IMG/VR virus record: IMGVR_UViG_3300026478_000263
Length of the DNA: 64,000 nucleotides
Origin: a virus
Lineage: Duplodnaviria; Heunggongvirae; Uroviricota; Caudoviricetes
Direction: 5' to 3' (one strand)
Below are positions 2,775-42,484 of the stretch, one piece after another. The position numbers were made by a program, and so were the translations under genes. How positions within the stretch are numbered: position 1 is the stretch's first letter; every line of letters starts with the position of its first letter. The notes under the pieces are model-generated. The model saw only the letters and a list, made by a program, of their open reading frames with translations, made no database searches and was not told where the DNA came from.

Positions 2775-3167
2775 ATGGCAGAGAATACAAAGAAGAAAAT
2801 CAAAATCATAACCGCTCCGGATCGTATATACGATCAAAGTCAAACAATGCTAGTTATTACTCCTAGCGACACACTCAAAGACGCTGTACAGGAATATGCT
2901 TTAGACTGTAGTGAACACTTAAACATATATCTGTACACAGGCGACGAAGACAACATAGCATGGTTACTCAGCGTAGCCAATTCCGTCGACACTATTCTTA
3001 TAGATATGGATAATAGTCCTGTAAGTATAAGCCAGTTCTTTGCTTACATTTTGAGTATTCCTACTACATACTATAGATGCACGAATATGCAAGCACCTTG
3101 GGATTTAATAAATAAAAATCGTTTTTACGACTTTCCAAAATTAACAGAGGAAGATAATGAGGGATAA
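2775..3167 (+). CDS. hypothetical protein
   Basis: intact ORF in operon context. Confidence 0.4.
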   Translation: MAENTKKKIKIITAPDRIYDQSQTMLVITPSDTLKDAVQEYALDCSEHLNIYLYTGDEDNIAWLLSVANSVDTILIDMDNSPVSISQFFAYILSIPTTYYRCTNMQAPWDLINKNRFYDFPKLTEEDNEG

Positions 3168-3390
3168 ACAACTACGTGGTAGTGGAGTTACTGTAAAAGA
3201 CGGTGAACCCGTTGAAAGAGCTCTACGCCGTTTCAAAAAGAAAATACAGGATAGCGGATTATTGCAGGAACTAAGAGATCGCGAGTTCTATGAAAAGCCA
3301 ACAACTGCTCGTAAGCGAGCAAAGTCTGCGGCTAAGAATCGTTGGCAAAAAGAACTGCGTAAACAACAACTACCTAAAAAAATGTATTAA
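3157..3390 (+). CDS. rpsU: 30S ribosomal protein S21
   Basis: 77 aa; motif ALRRFKKK...LQELRDREFYEKPTTARKRAKSAA matches bacterial S21 almost residue for residue. Confidence 0.85.
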   Translation: MRDKQLRGSGVTVKDGEPVERALRRFKKKIQDSGLLQELRDREFYEKPTTARKRAKSAAKNRWQKELRKQQLPKKMY

Positions 3391-3392
3391 AA

Positions 3393-3677
3393 ATGGACGA
3401 ACAAAATAACGAAGTTATGGACATTCTGCAGGAAGAGTGTGCAGAAGTTATTCAAGCAGTAAGTAAAATTAGGCGTTTTGGCATAGACAATGCTAAACAC
3501 GGAACAGAGCAGACCAATCGACAGCACCTAGAAGAAGAACTAGGGGATATGCTGGCTATGATTGATATACTAATGATCAACGAAGTAGTCAGTTGGGGCA
3601 AATTGCACGAAGCAAAAAGGGCAAAAGTCGAAAAGTTAAAAAAATGGTCTAAAATACCAAATTTAGATAAAATCTGA
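3393..3677 (+). CDS. MazG-like nucleotide pyrophosphohydrolase (small)
   Basis: EExxE...EELGD motifs typical of MazG/HisE all-alpha NTP-PPase. Confidence 0.5.
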   Translation: MDEQNNEVMDILQEECAEVIQAVSKIRRFGIDNAKHGTEQTNRQHLEEELGDMLAMIDILMINEVVSWGKLHEAKRAKVEKLKKWSKIPNLDKI

Positions 3678-3767: not shown

Positions 3768-5633
3768 ATGAGCAAAGTCATCGGTATCGACTTGGGTACT
3801 ACCAATTCATGCGTAGCAGTCATCGAGTCAGGAAATTCCAAAGTTATTGAAAACAGCGAAGGTGCAAGAACTACACCTAGTATTGTTGCCTATTCTACAG
3901 ACGAAGTACTTGTAGGTGCTAGTGCTAAACGTCAAGCAGTAACAAATCCCAAAAACACAATCTATGCGGCCAAGCGTCTTATTGGACGTAAGTTCAAAGA
4001 ACAGGCTGTACAAAAAGATATTGACCTAATGCCTTACGAAATCATGGAATCCAAGAATGGAGATGCATGGGTTCGCGCACAGGGTAAAGAATTAGCACCT
4101 CCGCAGATTAGTGCTGAAGTTCTGCGTAAGATGAAAAAGACAGCAGAGGATTATTTAGGTGAAAAAGTTACTCAAGCAGTTATCACAGTTCCCGCATACT
4201 TTAATGACAGCCAAAGACAGGCAACTAAGGATGCTGGAAAAATCGCAGGCTTGGAAGTATTGCGTATTATTAACGAGCCTACTGCGGCAGCTCTTGCTTA
4301 TGGTGTTGATAAAAACGACAAAGCAGATCGCAAAGTTGCTGTTTATGACCTTGGTGGTGGTACTTTCGATGTATCGATCATTGAAATTGCCAACGTGGAT
4401 GGCGAAAAACAAATCGAAGTACTAAGCACTAACGGCGACACATTCTTAGGTGGTGAAGACTTTGACCAACGTATTATGGACTACTTGGTCGACGAGTTTA
4501 AGAAAGAGTCAGGCATGAACCTTAAGAAAGACATGTTGGCCTTACAACGTCTAAAAGAAGCCGCTGAAAAAGCCAAGATTGAGTTATCTAGCAGTGCCAG
4601 CACTGATGTTAACTTACCTTACATCACAGCAGACGCAAGTGGTCCTAAGCACATGAATGTTAAGATTACTCGTGCTAAGTTAGAAGCATTGGTAGAAGAA
4701 CTAATCCAACGTAGTATCGAACCATGTAAGGTTGCTATGAAGGATGCAGGTGTTACTCCATCAGAAATTGACGAAGTTATTCTTGTTGGTGGGCAAACAC
4801 GTATGCCCAAGGTACAAGAAGCAGTTGAAAAACTATTCGGTAAGGCTCCACGCAAAGACGTTAACCCAGACGAAGCAGTAGCAGTTGGTGCGGCTATTCA
4901 AGGTTCAGTACTAGCAGGTGATCGTACAGACGTTCTATTGTTAGACGTAACACCATTGTCACTAGGCATTGAAACTATGGGAGGTGTGTTTACTAAACTT
5001 GTACAAAAGAACACAACTATACCTACTAAGGCTAGCCAAGTGTTTAGCACAGCAGAAGATAATCAACCAGCAGTTGATATCAAAGTAGCACAAGGCGAGC
5101 GTGAACTATTCCAATACAACAAACTCCTGGGTGAGTTTAAGTTAGACGGTATTGCTCCAGCACGTCGTGGCACTCCACAGATTGAAGTTACATTTGACAT
5201 CGATGCTAACGGCATTATGAAAATTAGTGCTAAAGATAAAAACACCGGCAAAGAAAATCAAATCACAATTAAGAGTGACAGTGGTCTAAGCAAAGAGCAG
5301 ATCGAACAAATGGTTCGTGATGCAGAAGTTAATGCCGAATCAGATAAGAAGGCACGTGAACTTATCGATGCTAGGAACACAGCCGAGGCGTTGATCAACA
5401 ATGTTGAAAACGACATGAAAGAAACAACACTTTCAGACACAGATAAAACAAAGATCGAAGATGCTGTTAAAGCACTTCAAACAGAATTGACAGGTTCTGA
5501 CAAAGACGCTATCGTACAAAAGACTAGCGAACTAGCAGTGGCCAGTCAAGCGATTGCACAGGCCAAACAGGACAAGCCATTTGAACCTGTTCAGGAAGAT
5601 GCAATCAATGCCGAGTTTAAGGAAACAAACTAA
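3768..5633 (+). CDS. dnaK: chaperone DnaK (Hsp70)
   Basis: [19 protein letters not shown]-terminus, full-length Hsp70 ATPase and substrate-binding domains, 621 aa. Confidence 0.95.
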
Positions 5634-5699: not shown

Positions 5700-6146
5700 A
5701 TGACACAATTAACACGTTTTGACACAGCCGCTCTAAACAGAGCATTAATCGGTTTCGACAATCTATTCGATACTTTCGAAACACGCTTTGCACATCAGAT
5801 TTCGAACAACTATCCTCCATATAATATTGAAAAGTCTGGAGAAAACCAGTATAATATAGTTGTTGCTGTAGCAGGATTCGGTAAAGATGAAGTTGCAGTA
5901 GAAGTGGAAGGTGATCAATTAACTATTCGCGGCGAGAAGGCAATCAATGCTAACGAAGGCGAATACCAAGTTGAGTACTTACACAGAGGTCTTGCTTTCC
6001 GTGATTTCGAACGTAGATTTACTCTAGCAGAACACATGGAAATCAAGTCAGCAGAAATTAAGGATGGTGTGCTTACAATTCAAATCGAGCGCATTGTTCC
6101 TGAAGCACTTCTGCCACGTAAGATTGAAGTGAAAGAAGTTAAGTAA
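5700..6146 (+). CDS. small heat shock protein (Hsp20/IbpA-like)
   Basis: alpha-crystallin domain pattern (GVLTIQI...); 148 aa; shares leader motif with dnaK. Confidence 0.8.
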   Translation: MTQLTRFDTAALNRALIGFDNLFDTFETRFAHQISNNYPPYNIEKSGENQYNIVVAVAGFGKDEVAVEVEGDQLTIRGEKAINANEGEYQVEYLHRGLAFRDFERRFTLAEHMEIKSAEIKDGVLTIQIERIVPEALLPRKIEVKEVK

Positions 6147-6201: not shown

Positions 6202-6510
6202 ATGCCAACTGTAGACACCGAAATTAAAATTGACGAAAAGATTAAAATCGATATCACTGAACCTAAGCGTTACAAGGTATTGTTTTTAAATGATAACAAA
6301 ACTCCAATCGACTTTGTTATTGAATTACTAATGACTGTGTTTAAGCACTCCAGAGAAAATGCTGAACAGATTACATTAACTGTACACAATGAAGGTTCAG
6401 CAGTAGTAGGTGTTTATACCTACGAGATCGCCGAGCAGAAAGGTGTTGAGGCAACACACCTTGCACGTCAAGCAGGCTTCCCATTACAAATTAAAGTGGA
6501 TTCCGAATGA
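6202..6510 (+). CDS. clpS: ClpS ATP-dependent Clp protease adaptor
   Basis: YKVLFLNDNKTPIDFVIELLMTVF...QITLTVHNEGSAVVGVYTYEIAEQK matches the ClpS core. Confidence 0.85.
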   Translation: MPTVDTEIKIDEKIKIDITEPKRYKVLFLNDNKTPIDFVIELLMTVFKHSRENAEQITLTVHNEGSAVVGVYTYEIAEQKGVEATHLARQAGFPLQIKVDSE

Positions 6511-7061
6511 GTCTAAAAGAACTTACACACGAGCAACATCGCAGAGCAGAAACAAGGCCTTTTGTTAAAGTCTTATTTTCAGGAAATGTAAATCCTAAAC
6601 TATACGCAACATATCTAAAAAATCAACATCCAATGTATGAGATTTTAGAAGTCTGTGCTATGCCACATGGATTACTTTCCGGTCTACCAGAGATACGCAG
6701 AGCACCTGCAATTTTATCTGACTTCATAGAACTATGGGGCTCAGACAATCCTGAAGAACCAAAAATGTGTCCGGTAGTGGATGAATATATCAAATATATT
6801 CTCAGCATCAAAGATGATCCTAAAAAGTTGATGGCACACATTTATGTACGTCACATGGGAGATTTATCAGGCGGTCAAATGATTGCTAAAAGAGTTCCAG
6901 GCAGTGGCAAATACTATCAGTTTGGAGACGAACCTGAAAAGATCAAAGAAGCAATTCGTGCAAAACTAGATGATAGTCTAGCAGATGAAGCAAGAGTATG
7001 TTTTGATTTTGCGGCAAAATTCTTTGATCAAATGATGGATATAGTTCCACACTATGAGTAA
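6507..7061 (+). CDS. heme oxygenase
   Basis: LKELTHEQHRRAE proximal-His motif and overall HO-fold length (184 aa); immediately upstream of bilin reductase. Confidence 0.7.
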   Translation: MSLKELTHEQHRRAETRPFVKVLFSGNVNPKLYATYLKNQHPMYEILEVCAMPHGLLSGLPEIRRAPAILSDFIELWGSDNPEEPKMCPVVDEYIKYILSIKDDPKKLMAHIYVRHMGDLSGGQMIAKRVPGSGKYYQFGDEPEKIKEAIRAKLDDSLADEARVCFDFAAKFFDQMMDIVPHYE

Positions 7062-7734
7062 AGTATGGGACACGCTGATTGAAGTTCAGCATCTTTTAGA
7101 AAGCAGTTTTAATGAAACAGGAACAGAAATCTTTGAACCGGGCATGGATCGCTTTAATCAGCCTGGTTGGGTTAATCGTGTTTGGACCAGTGGGTCTTAT
7201 CGCCGTGCTCACGTTGATGTTGTGGATGCTAGAGAAACCAAAGGACTCTGGATGATGCATTGTTGCATCTTCCCACACTTACACAATCCAGCACCAATTT
7301 ACGGCTTTGACGTTGTAGCAGGCAAGAATAAGATTACTGGCTGTTTTCATGATTACAGCAAAGCAGGAGATTCTAATCATCCTATGATGGAATGGTTTGC
7401 TGATTATGTTAAACGACTCGAATGGCGCAGAGAACGCCAACTACCAGAATGGGCTACCAACATATTCAGCCCTAGCATGGTAGCCGCAGGTAATGTGCAG
7501 AGCGAAGAAGAACTAGCGCAGATTATAGAAATGGCTAAAGATACACTGGCACATTACTTAGAAACTGTAGCAGAAACTAATAATACTACTGAAAATACCA
7601 CAGAAGCGCAGAACTACTACGCAATCAATCAAAAATGTAACCCACATACTCCACGTGTAATGGCTAGTTTAGGCTTAGATGAAGAGGATGTTAGGGTATT
7701 CATACAGGAATGTTTGTTCCCAGAAATTCGCTAA
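7054..7734 (+). CDS. ferredoxin-dependent bilin reductase (PcyX/PcyA/PebS family)
   Basis: FDBR family signature region (WMMHCCIFPH, DVVAGKNK); 226 aa; coupled to heme oxygenase. Confidence 0.75.
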   Translation: MSKVWDTLIEVQHLLESSFNETGTEIFEPGMDRFNQPGWVNRVWTSGSYRRAHVDVVDARETKGLWMMHCCIFPHLHNPAPIYGFDVVAGKNKITGCFHDYSKAGDSNHPMMEWFADYVKRLEWRRERQLPEWATNIFSPSMVAAGNVQSEEELAQIIEMAKDTLAHYLETVAETNNTTENTTEAQNYYAINQKCNPHTPRVMASLGLDEEDVRVFIQECLFPEIR

Positions 7735-7757: not shown

Positions 7758-8666
7758 ATGAGAGCAAAAGAATTCATCACAGAAGCAACCAATGCCGCAC
7801 AACAAGCCGCTATCGCTATTGCTAAAAAGAAAAAGCAAAATGTAAAAGAATTTGCGCCGGATAATAGTGGCGACGAAGAAGAAACATTACTCAAGTACGC
7901 TCGTATTTGGTACAATGGCGATGACGACATACAACAAAAAGTTGAAAAACTATTAAATCGTATGGGTTGGGAAATTGGCGAAATCGAATCAGAAGAAGGC
8001 GGCGCATTTGTTGTGCAGTCTGGCGATGAGCATGGTAAGAGTTATATTGGTTTTGCCCCAGAAGACTTAACTGAAGCCGCCATGGCGGAAGGTGTCGATA
8101 TTGGCCGAGAGTGGATGAGCGACACTGAATTGGATCAGTATGTGCCAGATCGCTTACAACAACAATGGCGTGAATTGTTGGGTTACGATCGCCATGGCAA
8201 TCCAAGTGCATTGTGGGCAAACTTAACAGGCGGATATGAACCGGATGTTAATGATCGTCAACATCGTGCCCTAATGGTTAAAGTGGCTAACAAATGGTTT
8301 GCGGCTAAGAAGATTCCTAATGTTAAATTCTTCAGTGTTAGAGATGCAGACGATGAATTAGAATGGTTAGTTCAAATTGGCCCAGAAGGTATGTCAGAAG
8401 ATTGGCAGAAGGTTAATAAGAAAGACAAAACCGATGGCATGAGCAGTAAAGCCGTTAAAGCATATCGTAGAGAACATCCTGGTAGTAAATTAAAAACAGC
8501 AGTCACTACACCTCCTAGCAAATTAAAGAAAGGATCTAAGGCAAGTAAGCGTAGATCAAGTTTTTGTGCTAGAAGTGATGGCCAAAAGAAAATGCACAAT
8601 ATTGATTGCACTAAGACACCAGACAAGGCAATCTGCAAAGCACGTAAACGTTGGAACTGTGAATGA
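7758..8666 (+). CDS. putative internal head protein with T4-like capsid-targeting N-terminus (MRAKEFI)
   Basis: N-terminus MRAKEFITEA resembles T4 IP capsid-targeting sequence MKTYQEFIAE; Cys/basic-rich C-terminus. Confidence 0.5.
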   Translation: MRAKEFITEATNAAQQAAIAIAKKKKQNVKEFAPDNSGDEEETLLKYARIWYNGDDDIQQKVEKLLNRMGWEIGEIESEEGGAFVVQSGDEHGKSYIGFAPEDLTEAAMAEGVDIGREWMSDTELDQYVPDRLQQQWRELLGYDRHGNPSALWANLTGGYEPDVNDRQHRALMVKVANKWFAAKKIPNVKFFSVRDADDELEWLVQIGPEGMSEDWQKVNKKDKTDGMSSKAVKAYRREHPGSKLKTAVTTPPSKLKKGSKASKRRSSFCARSDGQKKMHNIDCTKTPDKAICKARKRWNCE

Positions 8667-10216
8667 GAGCAAAAGAATTTATTTTATTTGAATCTGAAGG
8701 CGGCATGGCCCGCCGTGCAGAAGAAGCCGGCCGTGGCAAACGTGTAGCATTTAAAAATGCAGATGGAAATGTTATTCATATGATTGCATCTCAAGTGTTT
8801 CCACAAGACGTAGACAAGCGAGACAATTATCAAGAACTAGTTCCAGAGATTATGGACTATGTGAAGGCTAACAATGTAGCAGTATCTAACGCACTAACAC
8901 TTCCGCCAGTGGGCGGACTAAGCATACCTGAAAAAGCAGGTGCCGCATTAGTAATGATTTTTAAAGATGAAAAATCTAAAAAGAACATAGCATGGATCGC
9001 TCTTAAGCCTGCTAAGAAGCCAGGTGCTTATCCAATCTTCTTACAGACTAAACAGTTTTCAGACCTAACTGGTTATGTACAACTAAGCGGCAAAGCAGGA
9101 GAGGAAGATAAAATTTCTGGAGTACAACAACGTGCTCTAACTAATTTAAAACCTGTTGGAATTATTCCTACTAATACAACCATTGCTGTAGATGATATTC
9201 CTACACAAGTGCAAGGTTCTATTCAAGAGCGTGATGATCTAGCAGATGCTATTAAACAACAGGTAGTACAACTATTGCAGGCTGTTGCTTCTGGTAGCAG
9301 TAATCCTGTCCCCGGCGCCGGCGACTATGCTAAGAGTTACGAAATTGATTTAGGTGAAACAGCCGCACCAATTTCATTAATTAAGAAAAAGTTCTTAAGT
9401 GGTGCATGGCAACAGGCCGAAGCCGGAATGGGTTTGAAGTTTGAAGAAGCCGTTGGTGTAGAATTTCCAAACGATCCTGCTGAAAAACTATACGATAGTT
9501 ATTTGAAGTTTTCAGGTGATGTGAAGATTCGTGTAAGTTCCAAAGACAAGCAAGGCGGCGCAAAGGCATCTGTATCTGGTGTGGTAGACGATATAGCGGC
9601 ATACCCGCAACGTTATGAAGGATTGTTTGATCCTAAAGTCAACCCAGGCTTCCAAGAGCTACTAGACATTGTAAACATTATTAAAGACCCTGACATGAGT
9701 TATGTGGCTAAAAGCGCACAATGGAAACGAAATGGTTCTATTGCTGGTGCATTAGAATTAGGTGTCAAAGTAGGCATCATCGATGGTACACAAGCAGAAA
9801 AAATTATGGAAATCATTGACAGCGATCAGCCGCATGTTGATGACGAAACACTAGGCGACTTAAAAGGATTGTTAGTTTATAAAGGCACAGACGATTCGAC
9901 AAGACCAGACTACAGAATTGGTTGGCATTTATTAGCCGCAGTAGCAACTGGCACAGCAAATAAAGTAAACAAGGACTACAAGACAGATGCTTTCTTCAAA
10001 GCAGTTCTGGAACGTTCCAATATGTTACAAGTCAAAACTTCATTACAACAGAAGCCTACTAAGGACGCTGAAGGTAAACCATCAAATGGAGCATACTTCT
10101 CCAATTTTGAAGTTATCTATCCTCCAGTATTCACGGGCACAATTAAATTGGATGCCAGCAGTAACTTCTACGCTACAAGAAGACCAGTTGGTAAAATGGG
10201 TTTCGCAATCCGTTAA
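8663..10216 (+). CDS. putative internal head protein with T4-like capsid-targeting N-terminus (MRAKEFI)
   Basis: N-terminus MRAKEFILFE; paralogous N-terminus shared with 7758 and 17604 genes; 517 aa. Confidence 0.5.
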   Translation: MRAKEFILFESEGGMARRAEEAGRGKRVAFKNADGNVIHMIASQVFPQDVDKRDNYQELVPEIMDYVKANNVAVSNALTLPPVGGLSIPEKAGAALVMIFKDEKSKKNIAWIALKPAKKPGAYPIFLQTKQFSDLTGYVQLSGKAGEEDKISGVQQRALTNLKPVGIIPTNTTIAVDDIPTQVQGSIQERDDLADAIKQQVVQLLQAVASGSSNPVPGAGDYAKSYEIDLGETAAPISLIKKKFLSGAWQQAEAGMGLKFEEAVGVEFPNDPAEKLYDSYLKFSGDVKIRVSSKDKQGGAKASVSGVVDDIAAYPQRYEGLFDPKVNPGFQELLDIVNIIKDPDMSYVAKSAQWKRNGSIAGALELGVKVGIIDGTQAEKIMEIIDSDQPHVDDETLGDLKGLLVYKGTDDSTRPDYRIGWHLLAAVATGTANKVNKDYKTDAFFKAVLERSNMLQVKTSLQQKPTKDAEGKPSNGAYFSNFEVIYPPVFTGTIKLDASSNFYATRRPVGKMGFAIR

Positions 10217-11168: not shown

Positions 11169-11708
11169 ATGAAAAAACTATTATCACTTATAGCATTATT
11201 GCCTATGATTGTATCGGCAGCACCTTTAGGTGATTACACCTTTAAGAGTCCTGCCTTTAACGGCGTAGGTTACAGCAGTCATGTATTAACCATTGAGAAT
11301 CAAGAGCGCACACGTCAGAAAGAACGTGCAGATAAACTACAGGCTGAAATTGACAAAGCAGCCGCAGATAAGAAAAACACCAACCTTGCTAAGTTTGTTA
11401 GTAACTTAGAATCACGTATCTATGCACAGATTAGTCAGAACGTAGCAACCGCTATGTTTGCCAATAACAACTGTACAGCAAGTAGCAACACAAACTGTTC
11501 TGGCAACATTGACTTCCAGGGCAACTATATTAGTTGGGGCAGAGTTAGTAGTGCTAACGATGCTAACTGTTCAACAGCCTACGGATACTGCATTATGTTA
11601 AAGATTGCAGATCCTACAGCCACTAACCCAAGTACAGCATCATGCACAGACACTGGAATGAGTTGTGTGTATGTTCCATTAAGTTCATTCCAAATGCCGG
11701 GGAACTAA
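11169..11708 (+). CDS. csgF: CsgF-like curli assembly protein (secreted)
   Basis: signal peptide; YTFKSPAFNGVG resembles CsgF FQFRNPNFGG motif; downstream QISQNV segment resembles CsgF; directly upstream of csgG. Confidence 0.55.
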   Translation: MKKLLSLIALLPMIVSAAPLGDYTFKSPAFNGVGYSSHVLTIENQERTRQKERADKLQAEIDKAAADKKNTNLAKFVSNLESRIYAQISQNVATAMFANNNCTASSNTNCSGNIDFQGNYISWGRVSSANDANCSTAYGYCIMLKIADPTATNPSTASCTDTGMSCVYVPLSSFQMPGN

Positions 11709-11711
11709 GAC

Positions 11712-12881
11712 ATGAAAAAGACAATACTATCCCTAGCAGTTTTAACTATGCTTTCAGGTTGTGCTGTTATGCAGACAACTGGAGTACTAGACAAGAGTCC
11801 TGAAGTTACAGGGCAAATGACTAATGTTAAGAAAGAATTTGATACAATACCTAGTCCAATCGCTGGAAGACCACTAAGCGTGGCCGTTTATAGTTTTACT
11901 GATAAAACAGGTCAACGTAGACCGCAGGCAAACATTGCCAGTTTATCAACAGCAGTGACACAGGGTGCAGAAACATTCTTAATACAGGCATTACAAAATG
12001 TAGGACGCGGTCAATGGTTCGACGTTGTAGAACGTGTGGGCATTGATAACCTAACTAAAGAACGTTTAATTATTAGGCAAATGCGCGAAGCATATGAAGG
12101 TAAAGATGCTAAACCATTGCTACCAATGCAATTCGCTGGAATTATTGTAGAAGGCGGAATAGTAGGCTACGATCAAAGCACTACCAGCGGTGGTGTAGGT
12201 CAACGTATATTTGGCATAGGCAAAAATACACAGTGGAGCACTGATACAGTAACAGTAAGTTTACGAGCAGTTAGCGTAAACACTGGTAAGGTATTAGCCA
12301 CAGTGACAGTACAAAAGACTATCTTAAGTTCAGCAGACAGCGTATCTGCATTAAAATTCTTTGACGCAGGCACTAAGGCATTTGAAGCAGAAGCAGGTTT
12401 AACTATCAATGAACCTGGCACTTACGCTACAAAGGCAACTATTGAAATGGCAGTCGTAGAGTTAATTAAGGAAGGACAACGTAAAGGTGTATGGGAGTTT
12501 AAACCAGAATCCGCACCAGCGGCCAAGGCACCTGTACCAGCACCAGCGGCCCAGCCGGTAATTAGCTCTGAGATTAAAGAAGAAGTTAAAGTAGAGGAGA
12601 AGAAAGATGTCGTGGTTCAATCACAAACCAAATCCGAAACCGAAACCAAGGCCGTACCCAGTACCGCCGCAAAAGAACTAGAGAAGTTACCTACAGAAGC
12701 AATTCTAAAGGATGCTCAGTTTATATACAAGGAGCCAAACGAAAAGAGTCAAAGGACTTGGCAGTTTAAGCCAAATACACGAGTATTCATAACCGGGAGC
12801 GAAGGTGATTGGGTACAAGTGCAGGACGTAGAGAAGCGTAAAGGGTTTGTTAAAAAAGAAGTAGTTAACAAACAAAAATAA
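11712..12881 (+). CDS. csgG: CsgG curli secretion channel lipoprotein with C-terminal SH3b-like extension
   Basis: lipobox LSGC; long blocks nearly identical to E. coli CsgG (IIVEGGIVGYDQSTTSGGVGQRIFGIGKNTQW...LRAVSVNTGKVL...KTILS); extra Pro/Ala linker plus ~70 aa GDWVQVQ domain. Confidence 0.9.
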   Translation: MKKTILSLAVLTMLSGCAVMQTTGVLDKSPEVTGQMTNVKKEFDTIPSPIAGRPLSVAVYSFTDKTGQRRPQANIASLSTAVTQGAETFLIQALQNVGRGQWFDVVERVGIDNLTKERLIIRQMREAYEGKDAKPLLPMQFAGIIVEGGIVGYDQSTTSGGVGQRIFGIGKNTQWSTDTVTVSLRAVSVNTGKVLATVTVQKTILSSADSVSALKFFDAGTKAFEAEAGLTINEPGTYATKATIEMAVVELIKEGQRKGVWEFKPESAPAAKAPVPAPAAQPVISSEIKEEVKVEEKKDVVVQSQTKSETETKAVPSTAAKELEKLPTEAILKDAQFIYKEPNEKSQRTWQFKPNTRVFITGSEGDWVQVQDVEKRKGFVKKEVVNKQK

Positions 12882-13948: not shown

Positions 13949-15055
13949 ATGAAATTATGGATGGTAGTATTATGCGTTCCGTTGCTGAGTACATCGTTGG
14001 CCTACGCCGCGATAGGCAAAGTAACGGAACAAATCAATACACCCCCGACTATCCAGAGACAGAATTCGACACTAACGGCGTCGAAAGGGACTGGAGTGGA
14101 AATGAACGATGCGATCAAGACCCAGCAGGGCAAGGTGGGGATAACATTTGAGGACGATACTAAAGTCCAAGTCAATGAAAATTCTAAACTTGTAATTGAT
14201 GATTTCGTTTATGATCCAAAAAGTAAGGCGGGTAAACTAGGTGCTAAGATTGCTCTTGGCACAGTTCGTTATGCGTCTGGACAGATTGCTAAGAATTCGC
14301 CTCAGAATGTGGCCCTTTCTACTCCTAGTGCTACTGTTGCTGTACGCGGTACTGACTTTACTGCCACTGTAGACGAGCTAGGCGAAAGTACAATTATTCT
14401 TTTACCTAGTTGTCCTAATGATAGACCAACACGCTCAGTTAGAGATATTGAAACTAACTGTAAGACTGGCAGTATTGAAGTTAGCAATGATGTAGGTACT
14501 GTAATACTAAATCAACCCTTCCAAGTAACTAAAGTTCAAAGTAGAACACAACCTCCTACACCGCCTAAAGTATTAAATCTAAGTGAAATGGCCATTGGCA
14601 ATATGTTAATTGTCAGTCCTCCGCGCGAAGTCAAACAAGCACAACAAGAACAACAGAGAACATTTAATGCTTTAGACTTTGACTTTTTAAAAGAGAAAGG
14701 TTTGGAGAATTATTTAGATATGCAGGCCAATATGATTTATGAAGATAAGTTAGCCAAAAACTTTTTGTCTAATGATTTCCTTGCTAACTTATTCGACATT
14801 GTGGGAAACATACTGGATCAAAAGTTTTTAGATCCTGTAGATCCTGTGCTACCAGACTATAAAAAGTCCAGTGGCATTATAGCCTACAAAGATGATATGA
14901 GTGTTGAACTCTGTCGCGACAACGGTGCTGACATACAATGTGTTAAAACACCACTCACACAAAACTCAACAATATTACAAACACAGGGCAATTTAGAATT
15001 TAAGAACAGAATAAATCAGGGAGGTAATACTATTATTACCTTGATACAAAAATGA
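13949..15055 (+). CDS. secreted hypothetical protein (curli-cluster associated)
   Basis: signal peptide; beta-rich; sits between curlin-repeat genes, ATGA overlap with downstream gene. Confidence 0.4.
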   Translation: MKLWMVVLCVPLLSTSLAYAAIGKVTEQINTPPTIQRQNSTLTASKGTGVEMNDAIKTQQGKVGITFEDDTKVQVNENSKLVIDDFVYDPKSKAGKLGAKIALGTVRYASGQIAKNSPQNVALSTPSATVAVRGTDFTATVDELGESTIILLPSCPNDRPTRSVRDIETNCKTGSIEVSNDVGTVILNQPFQVTKVQSRTQPPTPPKVLNLSEMAIGNMLIVSPPREVKQAQQEQQRTFNALDFDFLKEKGLENYLDMQANMIYEDKLAKNFLSNDFLANLFDIVGNILDQKFLDPVDPVLPDYKKSSGIIAYKDDMSVELCRDNGADIQCVKTPLTQNSTILQTQGNLEFKNRINQGGNTIITLIQK

Positions 15056-17463: not shown

Positions 17464-17607
17464 ATGCTGAAAAACATCTTAATATTAGCAATTATTACAA
17501 CCTTAGCAGGCTGCGCCGGAATAGCATTTTGCGACAAAGACGGACGACCCAAGGGTTGCCACTCATGGGATCCTGCTACTCGAAACGGCGCGGCACCAAG
17601 ATCATGA
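17464..17607 (+). CDS. small lipoprotein (47 aa), not in ORF track
   Basis: ATG at 17464 encodes MLKNILILAIITTLAGCAG... with a classical lipobox; stop overlaps next gene start (ATGA). Confidence 0.3.
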   Translation: MLKNILILAIITTLAGCAGIAFCDKDGRPKGCHSWDPATRNGAAPRS

Positions 17608-18140
17608 GAGCAAAAGAATTTATAAAAGAAGCAGAAGCAAGTGACGCCGATTTAAAAGCAAGATATGGTGACTTCGATCCTGAAGATAAAATAATGCTTC
17701 CAACTACAAAATTAAGCAGAGAACCTGCAGCCACGCTTTGGACAGCATATGATGTAGTTAGAAATATTCTAGGTAGAGATAGAGTAACTGACGATGATGA
17801 CGAATTAGGTCCTGGAATGTATTATGTCTACCAGAGTAGCGGAGATCCAATGTTTAGGGATACAGGCGACGGCGTTGGCAGTATCAACTTACCAAATCTA
17901 GACAGCACCGCGGCACGAGACGTTGCTGTTGCGGCCCACGAAGCATATCACGCTTATGTACACGCTAAAAGTAAAGGCGGCTTTGCACACGCTAATGAAA
18001 AGATTATTAACAACTTAGCAGAAAAATGGTTGCGTAAACATTTATCAGGACAAGCCTTACATACAGCATTAGAACAAATTATAGGCAGTAGAATTAGTTA
18101 CGGCCGCAACCACTTACCAAAGCCAGGATTTAAAAAATGA
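17604..18140 (+). CDS. putative injected zinc metalloprotease with T4-like capsid-targeting N-terminus
   Basis: starts MRAKEFIKEAE (internal Met of track ORF 17460..18140); contains HEAYH (HExxH) motif. Confidence 0.5.
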   Translation: MRAKEFIKEAEASDADLKARYGDFDPEDKIMLPTTKLSREPAATLWTAYDVVRNILGRDRVTDDDDELGPGMYYVYQSSGDPMFRDTGDGVGSINLPNLDSTAARDVAVAAHEAYHAYVHAKSKGGFAHANEKIINNLAEKWLRKHLSGQALHTALEQIIGSRISYGRNHLPKPGFKK

Positions 18141-20188
18141 AAATACAATTCAAAAAAATACTAGTAAGTCCATGGACTGCTTTACTAACTCTAGCACTAG
18201 TTGTTGGTGTCAGAGTTGCAGATCCTACATTTGTTGAAAGCGTAAGACTACGTTATTTTGACACATTAATTACAAGTAAAGAAGTTACAGTTAACAACAT
18301 AGTTACTGTAAATATCGACGAAGCCACGTTAGACAAATATGGTCAGTGGCCCTTACCAAGAGCAGAATATGCTAAACTTGTGAAGGAACTATACCAAAGA
18401 AATGCAGGACTTGTTGTACTTAATGTTCTTATGCCAGAGACAGATCGTACTGGTGGAGATGGTGCGCTAGGACAAACTCTAAAAGAGTTCCCTGTAGTAC
18501 TAGGAAGTGCGCCAGCACAGAAAACAAAGAATACACCACGTGTTCCAGGATCGGCTGTACTAGGTCCAGAACATCTAGATCAAATTATTCAATACCCGGG
18601 ACTAATCGCCAACGTTCCTCAACTAGAACAAAATGCCGCAGGTGTTGGCATTACAGGAACACTTCCAGAAGTAGATGGTGTTAATCGCCGCATGCCGTTA
18701 ATTGTTACTGTAGACGGCAAATTATATCCAGCATTGAGTTTAGAGACACTTAGAGTCGCCGCAGGAGACTCTACCTTCCAAGTAAAACTTTTTGAAGGCG
18801 GCGTTGAGAAAATGCGTATTCCAAAGTTTGGTCCTATTGCTACAGATAGTTTAGGAAGAATTTGGATCGATTGGAGCCAAGAAGCTCATAGCGTTAGTGC
18901 TGTTAAACTTCCAAAAGATTTAGGTGGCGCCGTCGTTATTGTAGGTCCTACTGCCGCTGGTATTAGTAATCCGTTACCGACAAGCAAAGGTGCTGTATTT
19001 CCTCACGAAGTGCAGGCCGCAGTAATTGGTACAATGGTTAACGGCATTGTTATTCAACGTCCCGACTATGCCGACGGGGTTGAAATTTTAGCATTAGTAT
19101 CACTTGGCATATTATTAATTTTCTTATCGAGGTGGACTTATGTTGGCATTGGTGCTACTGTGGTTATTGTTGGTGCCATCGTTCCTGGTACTATCTACGC
19201 TTTCAATAATTGGCTCGTCTTGGGAGACGCGACTGCGATCGCGTTTGGCCTTATTATCGTTGCTCTTCATTGTTATGGCGTTAAGTTTATAAGCGAGTTT
19301 TTACAGAAACAGGCAATTAAGAAACAGTTCGCTGGATACTGTAGTAAGGAAGTAGTAGAAATGCTACAAAAAGATCCAGACCTAATCAAGCGTGGTGTGC
19401 GTAAAGACGTATCCGTTATGTTCAGTGACTTGCGTGGCTTTACACCCATTGGAGAACACTACGGTGATGATGTTGCTGGATTAGGCAAGTATATGAACGG
19501 TTACATGGATGCTATTAGTCAGCCTATCATGGACAACAAGGGTATGGTCATAAAGTATGTAGGTGACGCAAGTATGCACATACACGGTGCTCCGATTGAA
19601 GATCCTAATCATGCCCGTACTATTGTTGCTGTTGGTTTACAGATGTTAGATGCTGTTGATGAGTATACTAAACTAATGGAAGCACAAGGCTTACCACCAG
19701 CCGCAATGGGTTGGGGTTGTAACTCAGGTATTGGCTTTATTGGTGAGATGGGATCAACTGACAGACATAGTTACGACATCTTAGGTGACATGGTTTCAAC
19801 CGCCGCTCGTTTAGAAGCACGTTGTAAGGCCTATGGCGTGTTATGTATCATCGGTGCTGAAACTTACAACCGTACTAAAGATGACTTCTTCTATCTAATG
19901 CTAGATAACTTACAACCTAAAGGCAAAACTGTAGCAGACTTAATCTATACAGCATTAAGAACCAAAGGTGAAGATTACAGTAAAGATAAAGTACAGCACG
20001 AGTTGATGCATGCCTTGTATAAACAAAAGAAGTTCGACGAAGCAGCCGCTATGTGTAAAAAACTAAAAGGCAACTTTGGTGGACAAATGGACAAGTACTA
20101 CAAAATCTGGATTGAACGTTGCGAGTTTATGAAAGAACAGAACCTTCCAGATAATTGGAATGGTGAATTCATAGCACATGAAAAATAA
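18137..20188 (+). CDS. CHASE2 sensor domain / class III adenylate(guanylate) cyclase
   Basis: N-terminal TM plus periplasmic CHASE2-like domain and several TM helices; C-terminal cyclase motifs VSVMFSDLRGFT ... KYVGDASM. Confidence 0.8.
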   Translation: MKIQFKKILVSPWTALLTLALVVGVRVADPTFVESVRLRYFDTLITSKEVTVNNIVTVNIDEATLDKYGQWPLPRAEYAKLVKELYQRNAGLVVLNVLMPETDRTGGDGALGQTLKEFPVVLGSAPAQKTKNTPRVPGSAVLGPEHLDQIIQYPGLIANVPQLEQNAAGVGITGTLPEVDGVNRRMPLIVTVDGKLYPALSLETLRVAAGDSTFQVKLFEGGVEKMRIPKFGPIATDSLGRIWIDWSQEAHSVSAVKLPKDLGGAVVIVGPTAAGISNPLPTSKGAVFPHEVQAAVIGTMVNGIVIQRPDYADGVEILALVSLGILLIFLSRWTYVGIGATVVIVGAIVPGTIYAFNNWLVLGDATAIAFGLIIVALHCYGVKFISEFLQKQAIKKQFAGYCSKEVVEMLQKDPDLIKRGVRKDVSVMFSDLRGFTPIGEHYGDDVAGLGKYMNGYMDAISQPIMDNKGMVIKYVGDASMHIHGAPIEDPNHARTIVAVGLQMLDAVDEYTKLMEAQGLPPAAMGWGCNSGIGFIGEMGSTDRHSYDILGDMVSTAARLEARCKAYGVLCIIGAETYNRTKDDFFYLMLDNLQPKGKTVADLIYTALRTKGEDYSKDKVQHELMHALYKQKKFDEAAAMCKKLKGNFGGQMDKYYKIWIERCEFMKEQNLPDNWNGEFIAHEK

Positions 20189-25972: not shown

Positions 25973-26551
25973 ATGCAGTACAATGAATTTTTAGATTGGG
26001 TAGATATTGACAAGTTTTCAGATGCTTGTAATAACATCTGTCATCAGACAGTATTAAATGAATCCACAAATCGAATGATGAAAGAAAAATTCATTATTGC
26101 GGCAATGCAATTATCTAATCATAAAAAGAACATCGAGTGGACTGACGTTCGCGATTACGATATAAAATTTACCGATTGGACCAATGGCGACGTAGAAGTT
26201 AAAACTGGCAACGAACCTTTGTTCTACGCAAAGTCAGGAACTCCTAAAAAGACAATCAGTCTTAAATTAAAAAATGTTTACGAAAGTAAGAATCAAAGAA
26301 CTACACTAGACAAAGTTTTTAATCATTTAATGATAGTCCAAATTAAAGGAACATTCGCTGTTGCCTTTGTAGATTACGCAACAGTTAAGGCTAATCTAAA
26401 ACAATTAACAGACGGCTTCTTAGTCAAACTAACACACGACCAAATAAATATTGTGTACAAAAAAGATATGAGAAATGAACCGACATCTTGGACAATTGAC
26501 TTAGATCCAAAACCTTGGATATTTGGCACATTAGCAAAGGCAGGCGTTTAA
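25973..26551 (+). CDS. hypothetical protein
   Basis: 192 aa intact ORF. Confidence 0.4.
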   Translation: MQYNEFLDWVDIDKFSDACNNICHQTVLNESTNRMMKEKFIIAAMQLSNHKKNIEWTDVRDYDIKFTDWTNGDVEVKTGNEPLFYAKSGTPKKTISLKLKNVYESKNQRTTLDKVFNHLMIVQIKGTFAVAFVDYATVKANLKQLTDGFLVKLTHDQINIVYKKDMRNEPTSWTIDLDPKPWIFGTLAKAGV

Positions 26552-26885
26552 AGAATTGTTGTAATCCCTTCAAAGCGAAGGACTTCTGGACGCGGGTTCG
26601 ACTCCCGCCAGGTCCACCATAAGGACATAAATTTACTTTGGTATTCATTGTAAATTTACTTTGGTATTGTGTTTTTATGATGGGCCTGCCATGGTTTCGA
26701 CAGGGGTAGATAGTAGAGACGGCAACACGGTAGGCGATGACCGTAAATCAAGCAAAACTAGTAAATGCAAACGCATCTACATTTGAGTACTTCACTGTTG
26801 AAGGCTTCACAGCCGACAATGGTCTAGTAGCAGCCTAAGAAACTGCAACTCCGGGGTAGGACTTACCTTGTAACCCAAACAACCA
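26552..26885 (+). ncRNA. ssrA: circularly permuted (two-piece) tmRNA
   Basis: acceptor piece 26552-26619 ends GGACGCGGGTTCGACTCCCGCCAGGTCCACCA (T-arm + CCA); coding piece starts GGGCCUG at 26682, which pairs with CAGGUCC giving a G3-U70 wobble; tag frame ends ...GLVAA then TAA at 26836. Confidence 0.6.
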
Positions 26886-26910
26886 AAGGGCCTTCGGGCC
26901 CTTTTTTATT
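26886..26910 (+). terminator. rho-independent terminator
   Basis: GGGCCTTCGGGCCC hairpin + TTTTTTATTTT; identical hairpin reused at 35323. Confidence 0.75.
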
Positions 26911-26922
26911 TTACCAAACACA

Positions 26923-26951
26923 TTGACAGATGCCCTGTCCGAGCCTATAAT
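26923..26951 (+). promoter_or_regulatory. sigma70 promoter TTGACA-17-TATAAT
   Basis: perfect consensus hexamers. Confidence 0.6.
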
Positions 26952-32619: not shown

Positions 32620-32693
32620 GCGCTTGAAGCTCAATGGATAGGCAGGGACTTCTAAACTCCCGATAGCAGGTTCGATTCCTGTCTAGCGCACCA
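32620..32693 (+). tRNA. tRNA-like gene with anticodon CTA (amber-suppressor type), slightly non-canonical
   Basis: acceptor GCGCTTG/CTAGCGC (one U-U), D-arm, anticodon stem GGGAC/CTCCC with loop TTCTAAA (CUA), T-arm GCAGG-TTCGATT-CCTGT, discriminator A, encoded CCA. Confidence 0.45.
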
Positions 32694-37815: not shown

Positions 37816-37890
37816 TGTATCCCTAGTGTTAATGGCAGCACGACAGTCTCCAAAACTGCTAGTCGGGGTTCGAGTCCCTGGGGGTACGCC
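37816..37890 (+). tRNA. tRNA-Trp (CCA)
   Basis: acceptor GTATCCC/GGGGTAC, anticodon loop CTCCAAA, T-loop TTCGAGT, CCA encoded. Confidence 0.75.
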
Positions 37891-37895
37891 AATAA

Positions 37896-37973
37896 TGCAA
37901 CGGTGGCAGAGAGGCCCAATGCAACGGATTGCAAATCCGTAAAACCGTCAGTTCAAATCTGACCCGTTGCTCC
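37896..37973 (+). tRNA. tRNA-Cys (GCA)
   Basis: acceptor GCAACGG/CCGTTGC, anticodon arm ACGGA-TTGCAAA-TCCGT, T-arm GTCAG-TTCAAAT-CTGAC. Confidence 0.8.
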
Positions 37974-37981
37974 AGGTTATA

Positions 37982-38071
37982 TCCCCCGTTAGCTCATGGA
38001 GAGCAGGTCGGCTTATAACCGATTAATCTAGATAAGGTCCAGGATGAGGTTCGATTCCTCAACGGGGGACC
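37982..38071 (+). tRNA. class II-like tRNA (90 nt, long variable arm), anticodon loop CTTATAA (formal anticodon TAT) - isotype unresolved
   Basis: acceptor CCCCCGT/ACGGGGG + A + CCA, T-arm TGAGG-TTCGATT-CCTCA, 21-nt variable region. Confidence 0.5.
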
Positions 38072-38243
38072 ATAAGGAGAATATTATGGCAGTACTTGTA
38101 GTGTTAGTTATAATGTTCGTGTTGTATCAAGTTTTGAAAAAATATTAAAAGGAGAGTAGCATGAAACGTGCTAAACGTTAGTGTCACTCTAGATCTCCCG
38201 TATGGTCTAGGGTTGGCACGTAAAATCAAATCAATACGTACAA

Positions 38244-38319
38244 CCCTGTTTAGCGTCAATGGTAGCGCACTTGACTCTTAATCAATGAGGTGTGAGTTCG
38301 AATCTCACAGCAGGGACCA
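38244..38319 (+). tRNA. tRNA-Lys (CTT)
   Basis: anticodon loop CTCTTAA, T-arm GTGAG-TTCGAAT-CTCAC, CCA encoded. Confidence 0.7.
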
Positions 38320-38322
38320 TAT

Positions 38323-38397
38323 GGGGGTATAACTTAATGGTTAAAGTAGCGGGCTTTTAACCCGTAAATCAGAGTTCGATTCTCTGTGCCCCTACCA
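38323..38397 (+). tRNA. tRNA-Lys (TTT)
   Basis: anticodon arm GCGGG-CTTTTAA-CCCGT, T-arm CAGAG-TTCGATT-CTCTG. Confidence 0.8.
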
Positions 38398-38579
38398 TAT
38401 GAAAGCATTCTTAACTGGTCGCATAGCGTCAGTAGTAAGGACGGGCCACCATCTTATGACGAAAAAGGCATAAGAGTGCTTCCATATGGTAGTGTATAAA
38501 AACAAACTAACCACAGCCAGGAACTATAGACTCTGGGTGCATAGCGCATTGTCGTTAGTTTCTTTTTGTATAGTATTAT

Positions 38580-38653
38580 TCCTGGATAGTTAAATGGTAT
38601 AACAATCGGCTGATAACCGGTCATTCTGAGTTCAATTCTCGGTCCAGGAACCA
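38580..38653 (+). tRNA. tRNA-Ile (GAT)
   Basis: perfect acceptor TCCTGGA/TCCAGGA, anticodon loop CTGATAA. Confidence 0.75.
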
Positions 38654-38659
38654 ATTTAC

Positions 38660-38734
38660 ATAGCGTTCGACTTCTGGGGAGGTCATCACCCTTTCAAGGT
38701 GACTAGGCGGGTTCGATCCCCGTACGCTATACCA
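38660..38734 (+). tRNA. tRNA-Glu (TTC)
   Basis: perfect acceptor ATAGCGT/ACGCTAT, anticodon arm TCACC-CTTTCAA-GGTGA. Confidence 0.75.
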
Positions 38735-38819
38735 GAGCAAATAGAGATCTTGTGGGTTCATCCATGTTCTCTCAATGTTTGTTAGTTTCAATGGGTGGTA
38801 TAGAAACTAACACCAATTT

Positions 38820-38894
38820 GGGGGCAGTAGTGGGCTACGGTCTTCCCTTGCAAGGAAGATGTCTAGAAGGATTCGATTTCCTCGGCCTCCACCA
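38820..38894 (+). tRNA. tRNA-Ala (TGC)-like with truncated D-arm
   Basis: acceptor GGGGGCA/GGCCTCC with G3-U70, anticodon arm CTTCC-CTTGCAA-GGAAG; D region only 15 nt, variable 8 nt. Confidence 0.45.
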
Positions 38895-38983
38895 AATTTG
38901 CGACAATGGTGGGTTAACCGGCCTTGCCGGGGCATTCTAGATTACCGCGAAGGTTCGAGTCCTTCGGTCGCAATTATTTTTAT

Positions 38984-39061
38984 CTCTGCGTAATGTCAAT
39001 CTGGTAGACGGCCTGATCTGGAGTCAGGAGGCTGTACGTTCGAATCGTACCGTGGAGACCA
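38984..39061 (+). tRNA. tRNA-Pro (TGG)-like (C33 in anticodon loop)
   Basis: anticodon arm CCTGA-TCTGGAG-TCAGG, T-arm GTACG-TTCGAAT-CGTAC, CCA encoded. Confidence 0.5.
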
Positions 39062-39066
39062 ATTTT

Positions 39067-39141
39067 GCCCTTGTATCCTTAGTGGTAGAGGTCCTGTTTT
39101 GTAAGCAGGGTGTGGTGGTTCGATTCCATCCTGGGGCACCA
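39067..39141 (+). tRNA. tRNA-Thr (TGT), second copy
   Basis: anticodon arm CCTGT-TTTGTAA-GCAGG, T-arm GGTGG-TTCGATT-CCATC. Confidence 0.6.
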
Positions 39142-39367
39142 AGTTTTGTAAGTGTCAGCAAGAGAATGTCACGCTATTGTAGGTAAGTTCGAACTACCTT
39201 AATAGTAAAAGGGGACGGGTTCAACTCCCGGGGGATCGGAAGATCCCTGCAGATTGGTTGCTAACTGGACTAGTATCCCAAGTGACGTACCGAGTCCCAG
39301 CCGGCTTTATATACATGGGTGAATGGTTGCTATAACGATGGGGCAACTACTTACAAATTCAATCTGT

Positions 39368-39441
39368 TGGCCTATGGTGTAATGGTAACACAACTGACTT
39401 TGACTCAGTCGTTCCAGGTTCGAGTCCTGGTAGGCCTGCCA
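39368..39441 (+). tRNA. tRNA-Gln (TTG)
   Basis: anticodon arm ACTGA-CTTTGAC-TCAGT, discriminator G, weak 1-72 pair as in bacterial tRNA-Gln. Confidence 0.7.
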
Positions 39442-39448
39442 ATTTTAA

Positions 39449-39525
39449 CGGTCCTTAACTCAATGGATTAGAGTGCCAGTCTTCGAAACTGGAGGTTGGG
39501 AGTTCGAGTCTCTCAGGGCCGGCCA
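39449..39525 (+). tRNA. tRNA-Arg (TCG)
   Basis: anticodon arm CCAGT-CTTCGAA-ACTGG, D-stem ACTC/GAGT. Confidence 0.75.
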
Positions 39526-39527
39526 AT

Positions 39528-39602
39528 GGTGTTGCTAGTGTAGTGGTCCGCACGGCTGTCTGTGAAACAGTAAGGCAGGGTTCGATTCCCGGCTTCACCC
39601 CA
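39528..39602 (+). tRNA. tRNA-His (GTG) with G-1
   Basis: anticodon arm GCTGT-CTGTGAA-ACAGT, extra 5' G pairing with C73, two U-U mismatches in acceptor stem. Confidence 0.6.
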
Positions 39603-39608
39603 AATATC

Positions 39609-39684
39609 GCCGCTTTAGCAAATGTGGTCATTGCACCGGTTTGAAGCACCGAGGAACTTGGTTCGATCCCAAGGGGCGGCACCA
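39609..39684 (+). tRNA. tRNA-Phe (GAA)
   Basis: anticodon loop TTGAAGC, T-arm CTTGG-TTCGATC-CCAAG. Confidence 0.75.
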
Positions 39685-39691
39685 TAATTAT

Positions 39692-39768
39692 GCCCTTGTA
39701 CGCTAATTGGTAATGCGAATGGATTTAAAATCCGTTGTGTGTAGGTTCGAATCCAACCAAGGGTACCA
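39692..39768 (+). tRNA. type-I (short variable arm) tRNA with anticodon TAA (Leu codon UUA) - atypical
   Basis: anticodon arm ATGGA-TTTAAAA-TCCGT, 5-nt variable loop, discriminator A, CCA encoded. Confidence 0.55.
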
Positions 39769-39769
39769 T

Positions 39770-39841
39770 GCCTCTGCTGATGGAGCAGTGCCAGGTCTTC
39801 TAAACCAGGTTATAGTAGTTCGAATCTACTCAGAGGCGCCA
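39770..39841 (+). tRNA. tRNA-Arg (TCT)-like, short D-arm
   Basis: perfect acceptor GCCTCTG/CAGAGGC, anticodon loop CTTCTAA, T-arm AGTAG-TTCGAAT-CTACT; 72 nt. Confidence 0.5.
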
Positions 39842-39843
39842 AG

Positions 39844-39917
39844 GCTCTTGTAGGTAAATGGTATACCAGTGTCTTGGTACGACACAATCGAAAGTTCGAT
39901 TCTTTCCTTGAGCACCA
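39844..39917 (+). tRNA. tRNA-Thr (GGT)
   Basis: anticodon arm GTGTC-TTGGTAC-GACAC; two U-U mismatches in acceptor. Confidence 0.65.
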
Positions 39918-39922
39918 GATAT

Positions 39923-40000
39923 ACCCCTGTGGACAAATTGGTAAAGTCGTCTCTCTCAAAAGGAGAAGTTCTCTCCGTTCGAATCGGAGCAGGGGTACCA
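39923..40000 (+). tRNA. type-I tRNA with anticodon CAA (Leu codon UUG) - atypical
   Basis: perfect acceptor ACCCCTG/CAGGGGT, anticodon arm TCTCT-CTCAAAA-GGAGA, 6-nt variable loop, discriminator A. Confidence 0.55.
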
Positions 40001-40046
40001 CATTTGTAGCAGATTCTATCTACAACGAATTATACAAGTAAAACAA

Positions 40047-40136
40047 CGAAGCGTGGCAGAGTCCGGTTTATTGCACCTGTCTTGAAAACAGACGATCCGA
40101 AAGGGTCCGTGAGTTCGAATCTCACCGCTTCGGCCA
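40047..40136 (+). tRNA. tRNA-Ser (TGA)
   Basis: class II, perfect acceptor CGAAGCG/CGCTTCG, anticodon loop CTTGAAA, long variable arm GATCC-GAAA-GGGTC. Confidence 0.8.
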
Positions 40137-40143
40137 AAAGGTG

Positions 40144-40172
40144 TTGACTTGTTTAACAGTTGATCGTATAAT
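40144..40172 (+). promoter_or_regulatory. sigma70 promoter TTGACT-17-TATAAT inside tRNA array
   Basis: consensus hexamers 9 nt upstream of tRNA-Ser(GCT). Confidence 0.55.
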
Positions 40173-40180
40173 ACAAATAT

Positions 40181-40275
40181 AGTGAGTTGGCCGAGCTGGT
40201 CGAAGGCACCTTCCTGCTAAGAAGGCATTCCTGCAAAAACGGGGATCAAGGGTTCGAATCCCTTACTCACTGCCA
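40181..40275 (+). tRNA. tRNA-Ser (GCT)
   Basis: class II, perfect acceptor AGTGAGT/ACTCACT, anticodon arm CCTTC-CTGCTAA-GAAGG. Confidence 0.8.
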
Positions 40276-40282
40276 AAATGTC

Positions 40283-41665: not shown

Positions 41666-41679
41666 AGATAACTATTAAT

Positions 41680-42483: not shown

Positions 42484-42484
42484 T

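Follow-up and report, generated by a model that had tools for sequence, protein, structure and literature searches.

What a bacteriophage of a non-cyanobacterial host gains from making bilins is the question touched on by a locus in a 64,000-nucleotide stretch of viral DNA (IMG/VR record IMGVR_UViG_3300026478_000263, Caudoviricetes; hereafter the window, meaning the whole stretch analysed). In it, a heme oxygenase gene (hemO) runs into a gene for a ferredoxin-dependent bilin reductase (FDBR), here named pcyX, with an 8-nt overlap between the stop of the first and the start of the second (ATGAGTAA). The pair very probably constitutes a functional phage hemO-pcyX cassette making a reduced bilin. 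Judged from its characterised relatives, it is a cassette of an already described kind, which would convert heme into a pink bilin pigment. The first-pass annotation had proposed overlapping HemO and FDBR genes at this place, with an FDBR of the PcyX type, and both proposals are borne out: the open reading frames are present, their products match the expected Pfam families above the cut-offs, and the reductase carries the PcyX signature described below.

The reductase matched the Pfam family Fe_bilin_red (PF05996) with 60.6 bits (cut-off 31) and was placed by PHROGs in the auxiliary metabolic gene family 'ferredoxin oxidoreductase'. When all PDB sequences were searched, the best match was 5OWG, 'PcyX_EBK42635' (E 1.6e-69, 237 bits, residues 4–224); PcyA entries reached 46.5 bits at most and no PebS entry matched at E≤1. 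The identity to the 5OWG protein is 49% over 224 residues (BLASTP), and a common alignment gave 51% to the PcyX of phage Mosig, 23–24% to PcyA and 15% to PebS. The protein aligns with the family over the catalytic Asp/His region, which is conserved. Residues Asp55, His69 and Asp86 stand at the positions of Glu76, His88 and Asp105 of PcyA, and it is by an Asp at the Glu76 position, with His88 and Asp105 kept, that PcyX is told from PcyA (PMC13446030). Asp55, Met67, His69, Cys71 and Asp86 are found with the same numbering in 5OWG and in Mosig PcyX and are invariant across 121 close homologues, in which 107 of the 226 positions, all signature residues included, do not vary. A confident AlphaFold2 model (60 input sequences, pLDDT 93.7, pTM 0.91) retrieved 5OWG as the top PDB match in Foldseek, followed by PcyA structures at a TM-score of ~0.82. 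The reductase is thus classified as PcyX-type.

Two other assignments were rejected. For PcyA, the NCBIfam equivalog NF002760 gave a score of 83.8, below its cut-off of 206, and Asp occupies the place of Glu76. For PebS, whose active site is of the Asn88/Asp206 type, the identity is 15%, His and not Asn is found at the PcyA His88 position, and no structure of it comes higher than 36th in the Foldseek list. No relative of the window reductase was retrieved from 185,579 species-representative genomes, a weak negative since the search was limited to six exact 8-residue patterns. An assembly collection lists the identical reductase in 96 of its blocks.

The partner enzyme matched the Pfam family Heme_oxygenase (PF01126) with 82.8 bits (cut-off 23) over profile positions 6–180 of 204, and the PDB entries of HO-1, HO-2 and bacterial heme oxygenases with E values from 1e-14 to 1e-8. 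In HO-1 a proximal His ligates the heme and the distal helix contains the motif G-D-L-S-G-G-Q. His11 of the phage protein, within T-x-x-x-H-x-x-A-E, aligns with the proximal His of HO-2, and a distal helix Y-x-R-H-x-G-D-L-x-G-G-Q is found at residues 113–124 (G118-D119, G122-G123-Q124). Neither His11 nor the distal motif varies among 80 homologues with overall identities as low as ~40%. HemO is therefore assigned as a canonical heme oxygenase with its catalytic motifs intact.

By analogy with the characterised families, HemO would open host heme to biliverdin IXα, iron and CO, and PcyX would carry out a four-electron reduction of the biliverdin using reduced host ferredoxin. The likeliest route would run from biliverdin through 15,16-dihydrobiliverdin to phycoerythrobilin (PEB), as for characterised PcyX, and PEB is on balance the likely specific product of this enzyme.

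The cassette is strongly conserved. In all 79 related viral loci from IMG/VR on which the counts are based, hemO immediately precedes pcyX; 76 of the loci have clpS, and 74 each have dnaK and hsp20, the remainder being cut off by contig ends, and the order dnaK-hsp20-clpS-hemO-pcyX is maintained across the loci. The identity to the window proteins is 77–91% for PcyX and 39–84% for HemO, of which there are at least three divergent types (41–49% identical to one another). HemO has been exchanged among these types while its adjacency to pcyX stays. The similarity of pcyX does not follow that of its flank either (PcyX 91% and ClpS 55% identical to the window in locus L006, 83% and 96% in L034), which indicates exchange among related phages. 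Synonymous sites are near saturation in the five genes (pS ~0.68–0.76), and non-synonymous divergence (pN) increases from pcyX (0.125) through dnaK (0.158), hemO (0.247) and hsp20 (0.273) to clpS (0.296). PcyX, with a dN/dS of ~0.08, is under strong purifying selection and is the most constrained of the five. The conservation of the pair, together with this low non-synonymous divergence, indicates that hemO-pcyX is maintained by selection with the reductase as the more constrained partner. In a single locus (L012, 4504–6001) ~1.5 kb with a 515-residue open reading frame, maybe an inserted mobile gene, was seen between hemO and pcyX.

At the position of PcyA Glu76 and PcyX Asp55, representatives of 50%-identity clusters (homologues P0121–P0270) carry Glu (37), Asp (18), Ser (13), Asn (7), Lys (3) or Gln (3). 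A sister lineage with Ser55, whose FDBR is 48% identical (L170, 5001–5684), has the order hsp20-clpS-hemO-FDBR-...-csgF-csgG-...-FecR, and a Lys55 form adjoins T4 gp59 in a locus with no called hemO. No description of the products of the Ser, Asn, Lys or Gln variants was found in the literature. This natural variation, at a residue said to set product specificity, is material for testing.

Several points weigh against the preferred reading of the cassette. Its activity and exact product rest on sequence, from which the product is not certain. Asp55 may not be decisive, because the hsp20-clpS-hemO-FDBR operon recurs in a sister lineage that carries Ser there. Neighbor-joining trees of 86 and then 73 FDBR sequences (100 bootstraps; composed without alphaproteobacterial PcyA or CB_2 sequences) placed the reductase with 5OWG and Mosig among the non-Glu sequences, but with a backbone bootstrap below 10% and no bootstrap support for a PcyX clade; the tree was therefore not counted as support for clade membership. 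The precomputed Pfam lists, which cover the window and its 10 kb upstream flank, contain no ferredoxin or candidate bilin-binding protein, and no alaS, pmoC, photosynthesis gene, bilin lyase or phytochrome; nor was any of these found in the position that follows pcyX in related loci. The host, or another part of the genome, would therefore have to supply the electron donor. Finally, if iron release were the sole benefit, PcyX should not exceed HemO in constraint.

A different product would be expected if the reductase functioned as a PcyA and made phycocyanobilin (PCB), as does the 'PcyA/X' of CB_2, a large freshwater phage with a pcyX-like gene (PMC11480375). The relatives of the window come likewise from fresh water, and the unresolved tree backbone leaves room for such a function. 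However, Asp55 is described as a PcyX-specific catalytic residue whose absence explains the PCB product of the CB_2 enzyme (PMC11480375), and the window reductase has it. The identities (49% to PcyX, 23% to PcyA) and the shortfall from the NCBIfam PcyA cut-off speak against it as well, so that PCB formation is considered quite unlikely.

The contig continues upstream with a tail-fibre-like gene and, at most 10 kb from the cassette (L168, 1069–8290), with NrdA/NrdB, glutaredoxin and IscA-IscU-IscA. NrdB, a di-iron enzyme, and the Fe-S assembly proteins IscA/IscU are in keeping with a HemO that serves iron salvage. They could even be taken, together with the lack of a bilin acceptor in the window Pfam lists and the D/S/N/K/Q variation at position 55 of related FDBRs, to mean that heme detoxification or iron salvage is the only selected function, PcyX merely clearing biliverdin so that HemO is not inhibited by its product, with the identity of the bilin irrelevant. 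Such a limited role is rather unlikely, since PcyX is more constrained than both HemO and DnaK, and its 107 invariant positions, signature residues among them, exceed the need of a simple biliverdin sink. The stronger constraint on PcyX than on HemO suggests that the bilin itself also matters. It is tentatively proposed that heme turnover during infection would free iron and that the bilin would also be selected, for some acceptor.

The cassette is joined to a third gene. The stop of clpS and the start of hemO share 4 nt (ATGA), an overlap kept in 62 of the 76 loci with clpS, and the coupled unit accordingly comprises three genes and not two. The five genes from dnaK to pcyX all lie on one strand according to the window list of open reading frames (Table 1). 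Translational coupling would make clpS, hemO and pcyX a single unit that ends a dnaK-hsp20-clpS block of chaperones and a protease adaptor. A promoter and terminator scan found sites no more frequently than in shuffled sequence, so no operon boundary is claimed from it.

Table 1. Features of the window discussed in the text, with the evidence for each.
Feature	Position	Strand	Description	Evidence
dnaK	3768..5633	+	chaperone of the Hsp70 family, opens the conserved module	Pfam HSP70
hsp20	5700..6146	+	small heat-shock protein, upstream neighbour	Pfam HSP20, 68.2 bits
clpS	6202..6510	+	Clp protease adaptor	Pfam ClpS, 102.6 bits
hemO	6507..7061	+	heme oxygenase, 184 aa	open reading frame list, Pfam PF01126
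pcyX	7054..7734	+	PcyX-type FDBR, 226 aa	Pfam PF05996, 5OWG
tmRNA	26466..26929	+	permuted (two-piece) transfer-messenger RNA	ARAGORN 26527–26929; Rfam 26466–26908

Since PcyX is the most constrained member of this coupled clpS-hemO-pcyX operon inside a chaperone and protease block, the bilin might have a specific target of its own in a widespread freshwater jumbo-phage lineage whose hosts are probably non-photosynthetic Betaproteobacteria. This is a speculative proposal to which we assign little probability. If it held, the bilin could be a ligand modulating Clp/N-degron proteolysis or a different stress pathway, or it could lock host bilin sensors as a non-isomerisable chromophore, and the natural sister variants with Ser or Asn in place of Asp55 would make different bilins.

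The window contains the phage genes rIIA and rIIB, together with ClpP, DNA ligase and HNH genes, 33 tRNAs, the permuted tmRNA and a GOLLD RNA, at a G+C content of ~40%. The best matches of rIIA are from the jumbo phage XacN1 and T4-like phages. PcyX homologues at least 81% identical are found on contigs up to 330 kb, and 379 relatives were retrieved from IMG/VR, the largest contig measuring 399,796 bp. The source is a large, probably freshwater, T4-related jumbo phage. With regard to habitat, 2 of the 12 IMG sample numbers searched were traced, both to lake studies: 3300009164 is Lake Simoncouche (L022 and L047, PcyX 82–83% identical) and 3300020141 (L044) comes from work on freshwater bacterioplankton. 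Many of the remaining numbers are presumably North American lakes and bogs. The locus represents a PcyX lineage from outside the ocean that is very abundant and strongly conserved.

Concerning the host, the first-pass annotation had read the genome as that of a phage with a two-piece tmRNA, which it took to fit a marine alphaproteobacterial host. The phage genes, the tRNAs, the related contigs of up to ~400 kb and the tmRNA, detected by ARAGORN and Rfam alike, agree with the first part of that reading; the host does not follow from them. At the tmRNA locus Rfam tmRNA_permuted scored 138.4 bits, and beta_tmRNA (RF01850) won the clan competition (129.4 bits, model positions 1–331 of 331). The alpha_tmRNA model (RF01849) was rejected as the subtype because it was not the best-scoring clan member; the tmRNA database paper considers three older Rfam models useful for subtyping. 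The nearest 80 cellular DnaK sequences, among candidates found by exact peptide patterns, are 66–77% identical to the phage protein and mostly from Burkholderiales (Limnohabitans, Polynucleobacter, Comamonadaceae and Paraburkholderia; closest 72–77%), with no Alphaproteobacteria in this pattern-limited set. The phage DnaK is 73–74% identical to those of Burkholderiales, comparable to the 72–76% between Gammaproteobacteria and Burkholderiales. Because it is not nested among Burkholderiales and the candidates were limited by pattern, DnaK gives a weak lean only. The beta subtype, the Burkholderiales DnaK sequences and the lake origin of the relatives nevertheless make a freshwater betaproteobacterium our best guess, and the host is probably not a marine alphaproteobacterium.

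An alphaproteobacterial host, whether marine and SAR11-like as first supposed or a freshwater one such as LD12 or Methylocystis, would be in line with the facts that the only cultured phage with a hemO-pcyX pair infects SAR11, that Chen et al. predicted Methylocystis for CB_1, which has adjacent ho1 and pcyX-like genes, and that two-piece tmRNAs are typical of Alphaproteobacteria. It is nonetheless unlikely here, in view of the beta subtype, the absence of Alphaproteobacteria from the 80 DnaK neighbours, the G+C content and the lake relatives. Moreover, a phage tmRNA need not match its host in type: phage Melnitz has a SAR11-related two-piece tmRNA though it infects OM43, and such tmRNAs are common in aquatic phages generally (PMC9004378). 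That the cassette belongs to a cyanophage and supplies chromophore for host phycobiliproteins is very improbable. Cyanophages do carry ho1, pcyA and pebS, hsp20 is one of their core genes, and two-piece tmRNAs occur in some cyanobacteria, but cyanophage FDBRs are only 22–31% identical to the window enzyme, the Pfam lists of the 64 kb and the 10 kb flank hold no photosynthesis genes, the tmRNA subtype is beta and not cyanobacterial, and DnaK is of proteobacterial type.

The tag peptide that ARAGORN predicted for the tmRNA is unusually long (ANASTFEYFTVEGFTADNGLVAA). A glutamine riboswitch of the type reported in the ssrA of Melnitz was not found by Rfam in the window. Further RNA features lie in an island of 31 tRNA genes (37817–45473), in the middle of which stands a full-length GOLLD RNA (41035–41498, plus strand; RF02032, 207 bits, model positions 1–416 of 416) with a tRNA-Lys(CTT) nested inside it (41098–41171). 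The island also contains a 90-nt tRNA-Ile(TAT) (37983–38072), and a separate tRNA (32620–32693) has the amber-suppressor type anticodon CTA (labelled 'Pyl' by ARAGORN).

Three open reading frames downstream of pcyX (7758–8666, 8663–10216 and 17604–18140) all start with MRAKEFI, which is presumably similar to the N-terminal capsid-targeting sequence of T4 internal proteins. Unrelated proteins of 400–650 residues, many of them starting with MR..F, occupy the position directly downstream of pcyX in related loci, as might be expected if the phages injected a hypervariable set of proteins. At 13949–15055 and 18137–20188 the phage encodes a FecR-domain protein and a CHASE2-guanylate/adenylate cyclase, which suggests that it may produce cyclic nucleotides. 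Ribosomal protein S21 and MazG are located just ahead of dnaK (~3157–3677), and the curli pore genes csgF and csgG at 11169–12881, with no csgA or csgB and conserved downstream in most related loci. The same csgGF arrangement without csgA and csgB is known from pelagimyophages and Melnitz, with which the window shares csgF/csgG, the two-piece tmRNA, S21 and hsp20 (PMC9004378).

The hemO-pcyX cassette is already known from marine viral metagenomes, with a crystal structure, from a cultured pelagiphage and from large freshwater phages, and the window locus is assigned as a further member, its reductase being 49% identical to the characterised enzyme. Modestly new are the coupling to clpS with its chaperone context, which the published descriptions of the cassette that were consulted do not mention, the constraint ranking of the five genes, the variation at position 55 and the correction to the host inference. 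The cassette is established and this instance opens no new question by itself; the locus does offer concrete means of testing the reasons for bilin synthesis by phages whose hosts are not cyanobacteria.

The cyanophages P-SSM2 and P-SSM4, in which ho1 is accompanied by PebS or PcyA, follow the same phage-borne logic from heme through biliverdin to a four-electron-reduced bilin. The window reductase shares, however, only 15% identity with PebS and 24% with phage PcyA; the two genes of P-SSM2 lie far from each other, and the cyanobacterial host has known bilin acceptors. Closer in setting are the large freshwater phages TP6_1, BML_S_1, CB_1 and CB_2, in which ho1 adjoins a pcyX-like gene (Chen et al. 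2020; PMC11480375). With genomes of 159–527 kb, 32–44% G+C, many tRNAs, cyanophage relationships and hsp20, they resemble the window as far as published descriptions allow a comparison. The CB_2 enzyme, lacking the Asp55 that the window enzyme has, makes PCB and is accompanied by alaS (PMC11480375), whereas no alaS or pmoC was seen in the window or its 10 kb upstream flank, nor in the position that follows pcyX in its relatives.

The Pelagibacter phage Mosig EXVC030M (MT647606), the only cultured phage with a hemO-pcyX pair, has both genes adjacent, overlapping and in the same order as the window (identity 50% for PcyX and 45% for HemO). It is a T4-related myophage of a heterotrophic host, as the phage of the window is read to be. 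Its genome measures 141 kb, in contrast to the 300–400 kb contigs of the window lineage, and its pair lies among 2OG-Fe(II) oxygenases and a ferrochelatase beside neck genes, without clpS, hsp20 or dnaK. The closest characterised enzyme is PcyX_EBK42635 (5OWG), which, together with a phage HemO, was reportedly described by Ledermann et al. in 2016 and 2018. It belongs to the same hemO-then-pcyX cassette, its five signature residues are identical to those of the window reductase and its fold matches the predicted one. PcyX_EBK42635 came from marine metagenomes and has been characterised biochemically, whereas the window PcyX is known from sequence, its lineage has relatives from lakes, and its cassette is coupled to clpS upstream.

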